36,577 bases of DNA from NCBI GenBank assembly GCA_023380755.1, contig JAMCSD010000004.1, positions 1-36,577 on the forward strand. Reading direction: 5' to 3'. A model generated the notes under the pieces. It was not told the DNA's origin and did no database searches. It saw only the letters and a list, made by a program, of their open reading frames with translations. Source of the DNA: Patescibacteria group bacterium (GTDB lineage: Bacteria; Patescibacteriota; Microgenomatia; UBA12405). Numbering within the stretch: position 1 is the stretch's first letter; the number at the start of each line of letters is the position of its first letter. Position numbers and translations under genes: made by a program. This document shows positions 6,968 to 13,718 of the stretch, piece after piece.

Positions 6968-7729
6968 ATGACTCCCCTACAGCAAGCAATCAAACAAACG
7001 CAGGAATATGCCTCGAGGTTTGGGGGAAGGTTAAGCAAAGAGGAATTATGTCAACGATTATTGTCGCCGCGAACATATTCTCCGGAAGAAATTCTCTTAA
7101 CAGCCAAAAGGCTAGGGATGACTTTTTACTCAGAACACTCGGAATGGCAGACTAGAAAATTGGACAAGGCAAAGAGGTTGGCAGACAAATTAAAAAGTTG
7201 GCCAGAGATACTGTTGATCGGGGTGACCGGATCGGTGGCCGCGGGATACCCAGACGAAGAAGAAGATATAGATCTTTTTAAATAACTCAATCACCATCAG
7301 CTATGGTGGACCAGATTAAAACTGAAGAGATGGCTGGGGCAACAACAAATCCCCCACCGAAAATACAGAGACCAGGAGCAACCAGATGCTTTTTGTTTTA
7401 ACCTCTGGCTGGACAGAAAAGCAATACTATTGCCCAAACAACGGCAAACACGACAGAATGCGGTCGACCTAGTAATGATGATTCCAGTGTTAAACAACAA
7501 CCAAACTTATGAAAAGTTCTTACAAGTAAACCATTGGGTAAAACAATATGTTGCCACCGGCTATCAAGAGAAGACGAGATTTATAGCTACCATAAAGGAG
7601 GAAAAAGAAGAAAAGAATGTAGTCACTAAAATTGTTAACGATGTTTGTTATGCGGGGCAAAGAATTTATATGGGCAGAAGAATCGGCAAGGGTGAAGTGG
7701 GCATACACAAAGCCTATTTCTACCCTTAA
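6968..7729 (+). pseudogene. Pol-beta superfamily nucleotidyltransferase-domain gene interrupted by one in-frame TAA (7283-7285)
   Basis: ORFs 6968..7285 and 7430..7729 share a frame. GVTGSVAAG...DIDLF motif just before the stop; after it the frame continues LNHHQLWWTR...FCFNLWLD without further stops. Confidence 0.75.
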
Positions 7730-7750
7730 GCATAAAACTGCTACAATAAG

Positions 7751-8389
7751 ATGGTGATTGAGTTATTTAAAAAGGTCTTCTTTACCTTTGGATATACTGT
7801 ATTTGCGGTAACTTTGGCGTGGTTAATTCTATTTGTATCGATATCGCGAACGTCGCTGGCAATTCTAGCCCGACAAAATGGCCTGGAAAAAAACAAAAGC
7901 CAGCTGATTGCCCTAGCCAATCCGACCAACGGGACAAATAGTAATGGAACATATAAATTGCCGGAGGTGTCGACATTACCAACAAACGTATTTTATGGCT
8001 TAAAGGTGATTCGGGACTATTTGTGGCTGACTTTTAGCTCCAGTTCAGCGGAAAAAGCAAGAATTTCATTGTTTTTGGCCGATAAAAAGATGGCCGAAAT
8101 GTATGCTCTCATTAAAACGCAACAAAGTTCTTATGCCTTGGAAGCAGCAACGGGAGCCTTGGAGAAATTGCGGTATTCTCAACGAGAAACTGATAAAATA
8201 GTTAATCAGCCTGAGGTAAAAGCCCAATCGACTCAAAATCTGGCGAAAGCAGGGGTGGCCTACCGGCAAATGGTAGAATCACTTAAATCTTTGATCGATC
8301 TTGACCAAATTAAATACTCGGAATTAACAAAAGGATTAGATGACTTCAATCAAGAAGAAAGCAGTAAAATTACGCAACAGACACTTTAA
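7751..8389 (+). CDS. DUF5667-like protein with N-terminal TM helix
   Basis: LPTNVFYGLKVIRDYLWLTF...KARISLFLADKKMAE pattern typical of this CPR-enriched family. Confidence 0.7.
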   Translation: MVIELFKKVFFTFGYTVFAVTLAWLILFVSISRTSLAILARQNGLEKNKSQLIALANPTNGTNSNGTYKLPEVSTLPTNVFYGLKVIRDYLWLTFSSSSAEKARISLFLADKKMAEMYALIKTQQSSYALEAATGALEKLRYSQRETDKIVNQPEVKAQSTQNLAKAGVAYRQMVESLKSLIDLDQIKYSELTKGLDDFNQEESSKITQQTL

Positions 8390-10514
8390 ATTAGGAAAAA
8401 TAATCCTGATTGGGGCCGGAGTAATTATACTGGGAGGAATGGCCGGACTGGCGGTTATTTTAAGGGATTTGCCGAACCCGACAATGCTAAGCAGCGGTAA
8501 TTATCCGGAATCGTCATTGCTTTATGACCGGAATGGGAAATTACTTTACGAGATGTATTCAGATAAAAATCGGGTACCGATTAAACTCTCGGATGTACCG
8601 GATAATATGAAAAAGGCCACTCTGGCAATTGAAGATGCCCGGTTTTACAGTCATGGAGGATTTGATTTTTTGGGTGTGGTCCGGGGTGTTTACCGGACAA
8701 TTTTTTTACGCCGATTGCAAGGTGGATCAACATTAACTCAACAACTGGTGAAAAATGGATTACTTACACCAGAAAGAACGCTGAGCCGAAAGGTGAAGGA
8801 GGGGGTGTTAACCGTGGCCACAGAGTTAATGTACAGTAAGGATCAAATTTTAGAGATGTATTTCAATCAGACACCTTATGGAGGCACTTTGTGGGGAGTG
8901 CAAGCGGCGGCCCGGGGTATTTTTAATAAAAACGCTAAGGATCTGGATTTGGCGGAAGCAGCATTGTTAGCCGGTTTACCCGGATCACCAACCCTATACT
9001 CCCCTTTTACGCATCCGGATTTAGCTAAAAAAAGACAAGAGTTGGTCTTAACGAGAATGGAGGAATTGAAAATGATTACGAAGGAACAACACGATAAAGC
9101 GTCAGCAGAAAAACTGGTTTATAACTTGTCTTCGGGAAGTATTAAGGCCCCACATTTTGTGTTTTATGTGAAAGACCAGTTGGTAAATACTTATGGAGAA
9201 GAGAAGGTGGAGCAAGGGGGCCTAAAGGTGACTACCAGCCTGGATTTGGATTTACAGAACTATGTCCAAACAGTTGTGGCCAGCGAGGTGGGAAAACTGA
9301 AGAAAATGAAAGTAAGCAATGGAGCGGCATTGATTACCGCACCAAAAACAGGAGAAATTTTGGCTATGGTAGGGTCAAAGGATTATTTTGCCGATGATAT
9401 TGATGGAAAATATAATGTGACCACAGCCCTGCGACAACCAGGATCATCAATTAAACCATTAAATTATGCGACGGGAATTGAAACCGGAAAGGTGACGGCA
9501 GCATCGGTGTATATTGATGAACCAACCTGCTTTGGGGTAGAAAATCTGAAGAATTATTGTCCAGGTAATTATGGCGATGCTTATCATGGGGTGCAAACCT
9601 TACGGACATCGTTAGGAAATTCGTTAAACATCCCAGCAGTAAAAACATTAAAGTTGGTGGGGGTGGAAACATTCATTGCTTCGGCATCCGCTATGGGGAT
9701 TAGTACATTTAAGGATCCGGCAAATTACGGCTTATCCCTAACTTTAGGCGGAGGTGAAGTCCACATGACCGACATGAGTGTGGCTTTTGGGGTATTGGCT
9801 AATTCCGGAATCCGGCAAGATTTACATTCGATCTTAAAGGTGGTGGACAAGAAGGGTAATACGGTTGATGAATATGTTCCCACGTTGGGAAAACGGGTGT
9901 TATCACGGGAGACAGCTTTTATTATTCAAAATATTTTGTCGGATGATGGAGCGAGGTCAATGGTTTTCGGGGCCGGGTCGCTTTTGAAAATTAAAGGCCA
10001 CCCAGAGGTAGCGGTAAAAACAGGCACAACCAACGATATGCGGGACAACTGGACAATAGGATTTACGCCAGATTACGTGGTCTTGGTGTGGGTGGGAAAT
10101 AATGATAATTCTAAAATGGGTTCAATTGTTTCAGGGACGACCGGGGCGGCGCCGATTTGGAACAAACTAATGAATAACCTCTTAAAGGATAAGGAGGCAC
10201 AAAAATGGATCCAACCAGCGAGTATTGTGGGGATGAACGTCTGTAACTTAACTGGAGAACTAGTACCAGACGGAGGGTGTGATAGCCACTATGAATATTT
10301 TAAGCCGGATATGGTACCATCAGAGAAATTACCGGTAAGGCGGTCGATTTTAATTGACAAAGATACCGGACTACCGGTACAACCGGGAGAGCAAAAAACC
10401 AACGTCGAGCCTCAAGACCATTTGGTGGTCGAGGATGTGACTCATTCGATCATGTGCCTGGACTGCCCGCCGGTTAACCCATCGGTGACACCAGCTCCTT
10501 TGATGGTCAACTAA
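8340..10514 (+). CDS. Class A bifunctional penicillin-binding protein (transglycosylase-transpeptidase), paralog 1
   Basis: GT51 motifs EDARFYSH, GGSTLTQQL, RKVKE; transpeptidase SSIK, SLN, KTGT. Confidence 0.95.
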   Translation: MTSIKKKAVKLRNRHFKLGKIILIGAGVIILGGMAGLAVILRDLPNPTMLSSGNYPESSLLYDRNGKLLYEMYSDKNRVPIKLSDVPDNMKKATLAIEDARFYSHGGFDFLGVVRGVYRTIFLRRLQGGSTLTQQLVKNGLLTPERTLSRKVKEGVLTVATELMYSKDQILEMYFNQTPYGGTLWGVQAAARGIFNKNAKDLDLAEAALLAGLPGSPTLYSPFTHPDLAKKRQELVLTRMEELKMITKEQHDKASAEKLVYNLSSGSIKAPHFVFYVKDQLVNTYGEEKVEQGGLKVTTSLDLDLQNYVQTVVASEVGKLKKMKVSNGAALITAPKTGEILAMVGSKDYFADDIDGKYNVTTALRQPGSSIKPLNYATGIETGKVTAASVYIDEPTCFGVENLKNYCPGNYGDAYHGVQTLRTSLGNSLNIPAVKTLKLVGVETFIASASAMGISTFKDPANYGLSLTLGGGEVHMTDMSVAFGVLANSGIRQDLHSILKVVDKKGNTVDEYVPTLGKRVLSRETAFIIQNILSDDGARSMVFGAGSLLKIKGHPEVAVKTGTTNDMRDNWTIGFTPDYVVLVWVGNNDNSKMGSIVSGTTGAAPIWNKLMNNLLKDKEAQKWIQPASIVGMNVCNLTGELVPDGGCDSHYEYFKPDMVPSEKLPVRRSILIDKDTGLPVQPGEQKTNVEPQDHLVVEDVTHSIMCLDCPPVNPSVTPAPLMVN
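9405..9458 (+). repeat. 54-bp exact direct repeat, copy 1 (PBP paralog 1 SxxK region)
   Basis: GGAAAATATAATGTGACCACAGCCCTGCGACAACCAGGATCATCAATTAAACCA, identical to 11730-11783. Confidence 0.95.
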
Positions 10515-10538
10515 GAACGAGTATAATCGGCCAGGGGT

Positions 10539-12647
10539 ATGAAAGGAGGATTTTTGAAGCAGGCGAAAATTCGGGTAATTCGTAGTATTCGGGGGGTGTT
10601 ACGGGTGGTGGTTCGAGGATTAATAGTATTGGGCTGGCCGCTTTATAAAGTATTGTTCGGCGTTAAGAAAGGAATTAATAAATCGTTTAACTATCGGAAG
10701 GCAGCAATTTATTTGTTGTTATCTAGTATTTTGGTGAGTTTATCGATAGGAGGGATATTTTTCTACAGAGAAATTTTAGTGGACCTGCCTCAAGTAACCA
10801 AAATTGATATTCCCCCAGCAATGTCTACCAAGTTATTAGACCGCAACGAGAGATTGCTATATAAATTTTATACTGGGGAAAATCGGACCTGGATACCCCT
10901 GTCGAAAATTCCCCAATCACTAGTCTGGGCAACTATTGCCATTGAGGACAAGGACTTTTACCAGCATCCCGGGGTGTCTCTGAAGGGAGTAGTTCAAGCG
11001 TTAATTTATGACTTTAAAACCCACGGAGATAATGGCTTAAGAGGAGGGTCCACCATTACCCAACAATTAGTAAAAAATGTCTTTTTAAGTCAAGAAAAAA
11101 CTTGGCAGAGAAAGATGAAGGAAGTATTGTTGGCTTTTTTGGTCGAATGGAAATTAGATAAAAATCAAATTTTGGAGCGGTACTTTAACCAGGTATCGTA
11201 TGGTGGAGAAACTTATGGGGTGCAAGAGGCGTCATTACGGTATTTTGGGAAAAATGTCTGGGAATTAACAATGGCTGAATCGGCTTTCCTAGCAGGAATT
11301 CCGGCAGCACCGACTACCTATTCGCCTAATGGCCCGAATAAAGATTTAGCTTTTGCCCGACAGCGACACGTATTGGATGAAATGGCAAGCTCGGGATTTA
11401 TTACCCCAGAAAAGGCGGAGGGACTGAAAAAGGTACCACTAAATTTACGGGAAGACGCCACAGTGATGCGCTATCCCCATTTTGTGTTTTATGTCAAAGA
11501 TTATCTGGTGAACCGTTTTCAGTTAACTAATCTAGACCGGGCCGGATTGACAGTAGTGACCAGTATTGATCCAATAATTCAGGAAGAAGCACAACGGATT
11601 GTAAAAGAGGAAGTGGATAAAATCCGGTATTTGCGTATTAGCAACGGGGCGGCTTTGGTTCTGGATGTAAGGACTGGAGGTATTTTAGCGATGGTCGGAT
11701 CAAAAGACTATTACGCAACAGATATCGACGGAAAATATAATGTGACCACAGCCCTGCGACAACCAGGATCATCAATTAAACCAGTAAATTATTTGTTGGC
11801 TCTAGAAAGGGGGCGGACGCTGATTAGTACAATAGATGACTCGCCAATAACCTATGAGATAAAAGGACAAAAGCCTTATACACCACAAAATTATAACGGG
11901 AAATTTATGGGGACGGTAACTTTGCGGACAGCTTTGGCCTCATCACTAAATGTACCGTCAGTAAAACTCTTGGCAGAAAATGGGGTGGAAAACATGGCCA
12001 GGTTGGGCCAAAGTATGGGGATTACTTCCTGGAATGACAGCAGCCGCTGGGGGTTGTCGCTGGCGCTGGGAAGTAATGAGGTGAAAATGGTAGATTTGTC
12101 CCAGGCATATTCGATTTTTGCTAACATGGGCAGCAAAATTGAAATTAATCCCATTGAGCAGATAAAAGATTTTAACGGTAAGGTGTTATGGCAAAAAAAT
12201 AACGAGGGGCAACAATTAATTGCCCCTGTCTATGCTTATTTGATTAATTCGGTTCTGAGTGACGACAATGCCCGGGCACCAATATTTGGGCTAAATTCAA
12301 AACTAAATATTGACGGCAAAACAGTCTCGGTAAAAACAGGCACCACAAATAATTTAAAGGATAACTGGACGATCGGCTGGACTCCAGATTATTTAGTAGC
12401 CACGTGGGTGGGTAACAACGACAGTACGCCAATGAGCTGGGTGGCATCGGGAGTCACCGGAGCATCCCCTATCTGGAACAAAATCATGACAGAGCTGCTA
12501 AAAAATAAGGCGGATAAACCATGGGTGATGCCGGCTGGAATAGTAGAAAAAAATATCTGCGGGCGGGATGAATATTTCGTGATGGGAACTGAAAATAACG
12601 TGGCCTGCCCAGTAACACCTACCGGAACGCCAACACCAAGGCCGTAA
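10539..12647 (+). CDS. Class A bifunctional penicillin-binding protein, paralog 2
   Basis: EDKDFYQH, GGSTITQQL, RKMKE; SSIK, SLN, KTGT. Confidence 0.95.
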   Translation: MKGGFLKQAKIRVIRSIRGVLRVVVRGLIVLGWPLYKVLFGVKKGINKSFNYRKAAIYLLLSSILVSLSIGGIFFYREILVDLPQVTKIDIPPAMSTKLLDRNERLLYKFYTGENRTWIPLSKIPQSLVWATIAIEDKDFYQHPGVSLKGVVQALIYDFKTHGDNGLRGGSTITQQLVKNVFLSQEKTWQRKMKEVLLAFLVEWKLDKNQILERYFNQVSYGGETYGVQEASLRYFGKNVWELTMAESAFLAGIPAAPTTYSPNGPNKDLAFARQRHVLDEMASSGFITPEKAEGLKKVPLNLREDATVMRYPHFVFYVKDYLVNRFQLTNLDRAGLTVVTSIDPIIQEEAQRIVKEEVDKIRYLRISNGAALVLDVRTGGILAMVGSKDYYATDIDGKYNVTTALRQPGSSIKPVNYLLALERGRTLISTIDDSPITYEIKGQKPYTPQNYNGKFMGTVTLRTALASSLNVPSVKLLAENGVENMARLGQSMGITSWNDSSRWGLSLALGSNEVKMVDLSQAYSIFANMGSKIEINPIEQIKDFNGKVLWQKNNEGQQLIAPVYAYLINSVLSDDNARAPIFGLNSKLNIDGKTVSVKTGTTNNLKDNWTIGWTPDYLVATWVGNNDSTPMSWVASGVTGASPIWNKIMTELLKNKADKPWVMPAGIVEKNICGRDEYFVMGTENNVACPVTPTGTPTPRP
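11730..11783 (+). repeat. 54-bp exact direct repeat, copy 2 (PBP paralog 2 SxxK region)
   Basis: Identical to 9405-9458. Confidence 0.95.
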
Positions 12648-12663
12648 AGAGCAATTAGATAAC

Positions 12664-12693
12664 AGGAATTAGGAATTAGGAATGAGGAATGAG
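12664..12693. repeat. Intergenic heptamer tandem repeat (AGGAAT[T/G]) x4
   Basis: AGGAATT AGGAATT AGGAATG AGGAATG AG between PBP paralog 2 and the DHH gene. Confidence 0.85.
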
Positions 12694-12704
12694 AAAATAG
12701 ATTC

Positions 12705-13718
12705 ATGAATAAAAAGATAGCAGCGGAAATTTGGCAGGAAATTCAAAAAGCCAAGCGGATTCTGTTACATCTCCACCCCAGCCCAGACGGAGACAGTCTG
12801 GGGGCGGCATTGGCGATGTGGTGGATGCTGCGGGGATTAGGAAAAGAAGTGGACCTTATTAAAGGCGATTCAAGCCCGCCAAAATACTTGTCATCATTAC
12901 CCGGCTTTGGAGAGATTAAGCTGTGGCATTACGATGAGGTGGAAACCGATAAGTATGACCTGTTTATTATTCTTGATTCCATGGATATTACTCGGGTCAG
13001 CAATTTTGGAACAGTGGAATTTCCCAACAAGTTAATGACGGTAGTCATTGATCATCATGCTTTAAACACGCGTTTTGGAAAAATAAATTTGGTTGACGGG
13101 AAACGAGTTGCTACCAGTGAGATCTTGTTTGACTTATTTACCGGGTGGAAAGTGCCCATTACCAAAGAAATGGCCATCAACTTAATGGTCGGGATGTACA
13201 CTGATAGCGGAGGGTTTAAATATGAGCTGGTCAACTGGAAGACATTTAGAGCAGCGGAAAAATTAGCTAAAATTGCCCCTGATTTTACCCGTTTTATTTT
13301 TGAACTGGAAAATAACAATGAACCTGACCGGATTAAGTTTATAGGTTTGGCGTTGAACAATATTAAGCTTTATTTTTCCCACCAGGTAGCAGTGTCGATG
13401 GTAAGTTTTGAGCAATTACAACAGGAACAAATTGAAGCAGGCAGTATCGATAAGGCTTATGTATCGGGAGTGTTGAAATCGGTAAGCGGCTGGAACGTGG
13501 GAATAGCCATGGCGGAAAAAGATAAAGGGGTGGTGGGAGTCAGTTTGCGAACCCGGGATCCAAACAAATGGGATGTGGCCAAAATTGCCTTAGCCACCGG
13601 GTTTGGCGGAGGTCACGCCACTGCTTCCGGAGCAACGATAAAATCCACAACCGAGGAAGCAAAAGATTTAATTTTGGGAAAAATTAAGGAGTTATACCCT
13701 GAGTTGGGGGAACCTTAA
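12705..13718 (+). CDS. nrnA: DHH/DHHA1 phosphoesterase (NrnA-like nanoRNase/pAp phosphatase)
   Basis: HPSPDGD, LDS, IDHH, TDSGGF, SLR and GGGHATASG motifs. Confidence 0.85.
   Translation: MNKKIAAEIWQEIQKAKRILLHLHPSPDGDSLGAALAMWWMLRGLGKEVDLIKGDSSPPKYLSSLPGFGEIKLWHYDEVETDKYDLFIILDSMDITRVSNFGTVEFPNKLMTVVIDHHALNTRFGKINLVDGKRVATSEILFDLFTGWKVPITKEMAINLMVGMYTDSGGFKYELVNWKTFRAAEKLAKIAPDFTRFIFELENNNEPDRIKFIGLALNNIKLYFSHQVAVSMVSFEQLQQEQIEAGSIDKAYVSGVLKSVSGWNVGIAMAEKDKGVVGVSLRTRDPNKWDVAKIALATGFGGGHATASGATIKSTTEEAKDLILGKIKELYPELGEP

Follow-up and report, generated by a model that had tools for sequence, protein, structure and literature searches.

A short tract of nucleotide identity at the catalytic SxxK motif of two tandem penicillin-binding protein genes points to recent gene conversion in a Patescibacteria genome

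Tandem PBP genes and their shared tract

The window analysed in this study is a stretch of 36,577 nucleotides (nt) from a Patescibacteria group bacterium (assembly GCA_023380755.1, contig JAMCSD010000004.1, positions 1 to 36,577). Two genes for penicillin-binding proteins (PBPs), here called PBP A and PBP B, lie in tandem in the window and share a tract of 54 identical nucleotides across the SxxK motif, which contains the catalytic serine. The genes and the two copies of the tract are as follows:

8340..10514, + strand: PBP A, class A (bifunctional) penicillin-binding protein of 724 amino acids, with PF00912 and PF00905 matches
9405..9458, + strand: tract copy in PBP A, 18 codons (GKYNVTTALRQPGSSIKP) that include the SxxK motif (SSIK), exact 54-nt match to 11730-11783
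10539..12647, + strand: PBP B, tandem class A PBP paralog of 702 amino acids, with PF00912 and PF00905 matches
11730..11783, + strand: tract copy in PBP B, the same 18 codons, exact 54-nt match to 9405-9458

Each gene encodes an N-terminal GT51 glycosyltransferase domain and a C-terminal acyl-serine transpeptidase domain, and both translations contain the motifs SSIK, SLN, and KTG. Both proteins are therefore class A PBPs. The Pfam transglycosylase family (Transgly, PF00912, cut-off 27 bits) matched PBP A with 2.7e-59 (200 bits) and PBP B with 7.6e-59 (198.5 bits), and the transpeptidase family (PF00905) matched them with 2.3e-22 (80 bits) and 4.6e-22 (79 bits), respectively. The amino-acid identity between the two proteins is 45%. 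The host assembly is a metagenome bin of 806 kb in 9 contigs and is 77% complete. Its relatives carry the names Candidatus Shapirobacteria, Microgenomates, or Patescibacteria.

A first-pass annotation, made from the letters of the sequence, had described a perfect 54-bp tract of 18 codons in which all synonymous positions are equal, and both the coordinates and the identity were exact. The two copies are 2325 nt (775 codons) apart from start to start, in frame, and are the only two in the assembly. At the upstream boundary there is a synonymous mismatch at 9404 (T/C). At the downstream boundary there is a non-synonymous T/G mismatch at 9459/11784 (TTA Leu vs GTA Val), and a further 8 identical bases follow it. 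The silent differences reported for the flanks were also present (GGG TCA AAG GAT vs GGA TCA AAA GAC; GAT ATT GAT vs GAT ATC GAC), and around KTG and DNWT, where silent divergence had been claimed as well, the same codon is used at just 6 of 13 shared residues. The flanks of PBP A are A-like and those of PBP B are B-like both before and after the tract, with no crossover, which is the pattern of a non-reciprocal event. The exact 54-mer had no match in the other genomes and metagenome contigs scanned.

Codon identity inside and outside the tract

Synonymous identity was not similar along the whole alignment. PBP A and PBP B use the same codon at 101 of 260 shared residues outside the tract (0.39), versus all 18 codons inside it. 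The probability of 18 identical codons was 1.1e-9 when codons were drawn from the genome codon usage, and 3.2e-8 when the per-residue rates of the pair itself were used. Across 20,000 simulations, exact runs in register extended to 32-35 nt at most, and none reached the observed 54 nt. When the codons of PBP B were permuted within residue classes, none of 3000 permutations reached 54 nt and the maximum was 29. The tract is thus significantly longer than the paralog background permits (54 nt against a simulated maximum of 35 nt).

Orthologous pairs in related genomes

The distribution of orthologues indicates that the tandem PBP pair is ancient. PBP A orthologues with 53-74% identity were found in all 60 relatives searched, and throughout the family and order A is followed directly by a B orthologue. 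Compared with same-genus orthologues, the synonymous sites are saturated, codon identity at shared residues being 0.41-0.43, equal to the level between the paralogs. Since saturation is already reached at the genus level and the tract contains zero differences, the tract is much younger than the genus-level split.

Both genes were collected from 93 species. In the region of the 18-codon tract, A and B of one genome shared a median of 40/54 nt (about 14 differing), with a median of 7 synonymous differences. All 18 residues are equal in 10 genomes, and the synonymous differences in these were 0 (this window), 2, 3, 4, 6, 7, 10, 11, 12, and 12. Because up to 12 synonymous differences are found where the 18 residues are equal, protein-level selection does not explain the identity, as the first-pass annotation had argued. 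Nor do orthologues conserve the tract at the nucleotide level, and a conserved nucleotide element does not account for the tract. The identity is derived: most orthologous pairs are without it, and the duplication is older than the divergence of the relatives.

The arrangement of the pair was also recorded in individual relatives. G017 (L046) has no B gene downstream of A and carries unrelated genes on the opposite strand there; PBP B is hence not universal. In the order-level relatives L067 (G045) and L068 (G054), A and B are not directly adjacent, and about 2-3 kb of other sequence lies between them. The B genes of G035 (L050) and G022 (L063) are without the SKDY...DID segment just upstream of SxxK and read MVGGVNGDFNVTT and MVGSVNGDYNVTT.

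Recurrence of A/B patches in relatives

The first-pass annotation had also proposed comparing related genomes for repeated homogenisation of the tract. This comparison was run, and the same stretch was found to be homogenised independently in other genera, where the patches have since decayed slightly. In G029 (L062), which belongs to another genus, A and B share a patch of 105 nt with 4 mismatches (101/105), of which 59 nt are exact; it covers the SxxK stretch and the variable residues FAPD. L148 carries a patch of 87/90 nt at the SxxK stretch, with 53 nt exact, that takes in the variable residues FAND. Shorter exact runs were found in the SxxK stretch of L156 (32 nt) and L082 (37 nt), and further genomes show runs at different invariant blocks, namely 43 nt at TQQLVKN, 34 nt at GGGEVRMIDL, and 32 nt at APHFVFYVKE. 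In total, 8 runs of at least 32 nt were found among the 93 pairs, and 5 of the 8 lie within approximately 40 codons around SxxK.

Exact runs of at least 32 nt occurred in 6 of 54 within-genome A-B pairs versus 3 of 2862 between-genome pairs (Fisher 2e-9). After matching for GC content at third codon positions (GC3), between-genome runs of this length were seen in 1 of 600 pairs (1.6e-6). With the two strongest genomes omitted, the within-genome excess of synonymous codon identity was +0.134 in the SxxK block versus +0.046 in the background. The two paralogs of a genome always agree in the codon type of the catalytic serine (Fisher 2e-4): both have AGC in 2 genomes, and both have TCN in the remaining 91. 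From these patterns, we infer low-level recurrent concerted evolution of conserved A/B blocks in Ca. Shapirobacteria-like genomes, in which the SxxK region would be the main hotspot.

The two genomes with AGC, L048 and L148, are distantly related. A switch of the serine codon from TCN to AGC requires two base changes.

Alternative explanations

An assembly or polishing artefact, in which two truly different copies were collapsed to one sequence, survives best among the alternatives, and we regard it as improbable. The genome is a bin of 9 contigs, no second assembly of the species was found, and the exact proteins of PBP A and PBP B are not on record, in searches from which entries of this genome may have been hidden. 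Bubble merging can wipe out isolated differences between near-identical repeats. However, lineage-specific sequence lies right beside the tract on both sides in both genes, and no contig join is involved at the repeat. Graph simplification needs exact flanking k-mers; it could remove one or two differences in a tract that was already homogenised, but not the approximately 14 nt (7 synonymous) by which the copies typically differ. In addition, independent assemblies produced by other studies (L062, L148, and L156) carry similar patches with few mismatches at this site.

Selection at the nucleotide or RNA level would hold the copies identical if both mRNAs needed one sequence, for instance to be bound by an antisense RNA, to form a shared structure, or to act as a pausing signal. 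The within-genome identity of the block is elevated in many genomes, which is a pattern that could, in principle, come from a trans factor evolving along with the copies. Against this, the nucleotides of the tract are not kept between orthologues, and in most genomes the two copies carry 5-12 synonymous differences. The Rfam search of positions 8000-13000 gave no match with E up to 1, and neither a third copy nor an antisense partner of at least 13 nt was found in the assembly, both of which count against a requirement of this kind. Matches of 12 nt to the tract numbered 7 in the assembly, versus approximately 4 expected. The patches in other genomes run into variable residues and have different boundaries, which fits copying rather than a fixed element. 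This explanation is very improbable, more so than an artefact.

Chance together with shared codon bias across a run of invariant residues has in its favour that neither lineage varies at the 18 residues and that within-genome codon identity is generally slightly above between-genome identity, but it is effectively refuted by the simulations, the permutation, and the GC3-matched comparison, and retains next to no probability.

Gene conversion and its possible mechanism

We consider it highly likely that the tract arose by a recent, non-reciprocal, short-tract gene conversion in which one of the tandem PBP genes received approximately 54 nt (no more than 54 nt fit between the flanking mismatches) at SxxK from its neighbour. 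The first-pass annotation had proposed recent conversion between the paralogs, and this proposal is supported by identity at the nucleotide level, by its rarity in orthologous pairs, by paralog-specific flanks, and by independent events elsewhere. Compared with the orthologues of the same genus, the tract matches A at 43 and B at 44 of 54 nt; it is equally distant from both, which fits either gene as the donor. Both genes already encode the same 18 residues; the event was therefore silent at the protein level, and the conversion was probably neutral.

The proposed mechanism begins with the near-invariant residues of the stretch (GKYNVTTALRQPGSSIKP in both lineages), which would make it one of the blocks where A and B are most alike and so provide the longest identity seeds. 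Such seeds could allow RecA-mediated strand invasion or template switching between the copies 2.3 kb apart, on the same or the sister chromosome. RecA is encoded in the genome (425 bits). MutS and MutL normally abort recombination between diverged sequences. No match to MutS (MutS_V, PF00488) or MutL (PF01119) was found in four of the five genomes checked, namely this genome (G000), a 96% complete congener (G001), G029, and G051. Without MutS and MutL, heteroduplex could form in flanks of only 70-80% identity, and its resolution would leave a short patch. In the fifth genome, G043, MutS and MutL are both present, side by side.

Several points weigh against this account. G043 has a 37-nt run despite encoding both MutS and MutL, and the loss of mismatch repair is therefore not required for conversion. 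Since the genome studied here is 77% complete, its own absence of MutS and MutL is weak evidence alone, and is backed by the same-genus genome. The exact identity of the tract rests on one metagenome-assembled contig. Outside the strongest cases the within-genome excess is weaker (the permutation within residue classes gave p<0.05 for 12 of 39 genomes), and this weaker excess could be due in part to position-specific codon preference at conserved residues instead of conversion.

A broader proposal is that the SxxK stretch is a recurrent micro-conversion hotspot throughout Ca. Shapirobacteria-like bacteria and possibly a functional one, which would let active-site changes such as the TCN-to-AGC switch, or the repair of a damaged active site, pass from one synthase to the other in genomes without MutS and MutL. 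We put this forward tentatively and think it rather unlikely.

Comparison with known systems

Mosaic PBP genes of Streptococcus pneumoniae and Neisseria arise by interspecies recombination and give β-lactam resistance. The present case resembles them in having a recombination tract inside the transpeptidase domain of a PBP, and the first-pass annotation had drawn this comparison. It holds as an analogy only. Mosaic PBPs receive blocks of hundreds of bases from another species, and these blocks change amino acids of the transpeptidase domain in ways that lower drug affinity. In contrast, the donor here is the neighbouring paralog, which the tract matches exactly, the tract is 54 nt, and no residue is changed. 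The tract encodes the family consensus of both lineages, and neither protein was altered. A link to β-lactam resistance or susceptibility is not supported.

Interlocus (ectopic) gene conversion in bacteria is known from tufA/tufB in Salmonella and from rRNA operons. Genome-wide gene conversion has recently been described for Mycobacterium tuberculosis (PMC12046097 and PMC13061034). The present tract is like these cases in that it is a non-reciprocal patch between paralogs within one genome, a run of identity that breaks the surrounding divergence, and reliant on local similarity. It is unlike them in that the paralogs are very old (45% identical), the patches are 30-105 nt in invariant motifs, and the genes are not homogenised. 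The host also differs, being an uncultured, reduced member of the Candidate Phyla Radiation (CPR) in which MutS and MutL were not detected. Our literature search found general work on bacterial gene conversion and none on PBP paralogs or CPR.

Short direct repeats can recombine to give deletions and fusions; such recombination depends on RecA above approximately 25-30 nt of identity, or proceeds by RecA-independent slippage. Repeats of 54 nt that are 2325 nt apart are in principle long enough for unequal exchange. The first-pass annotation had suggested that they could give a chimeric PBP or loop out the segment between them. The spacing of 2325 nt equals 3 x 775, which makes an in-frame A/B fusion by deletion between the repeats plausible, but unlike in direct-repeat recombination, no chimera, fusion, or deletion product was found in this genome or among the relatives. 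G017, the sole relative with a single PBP at the locus, was considered as a candidate for a chimeric A/B gene and rejected, as its gene is A-type throughout.

Other features of the window

GC skew is positive in all 2-kb bins of the window, and the cumulative skew climbs without a turn. A single bin breaks the otherwise positive AT skew. The skew is consistent with the window lying entirely within one replichore. An inverted repeat of 29 nt (97% complementary) was found at 7270-7298 and 7750-7778, its arms enclosing 451 nt. The repeat spans the interval from the end of a short nucleotidyltransferase-like open reading frame (6968-7285, ending ...EEEDIDLFK) to the start of a DUF5667 gene (7751-8389), and its arms overlap the stop of the former and the start of the latter. 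The segment enclosed by the repeat could be a small inserted or invertible element.

Biological significance

Gene conversion is a well-known process, and the present case is a further example of it, which is statistically secure and part of a recurrent pattern in the lineage. It means that homologous exchange is still active between sequences whose proteins are 45% identical in a very small, uncultured CPR genome, and that it reaches no further than patches of 30-105 nt within invariant motifs. Separate genera show repeated homogenisation of one and the same motif. A consequence for annotation and phylogeny is that these PBP genes depart from the gene tree over short stretches. The A/B patches give a natural record of recombination for organisms beyond the reach of culture.

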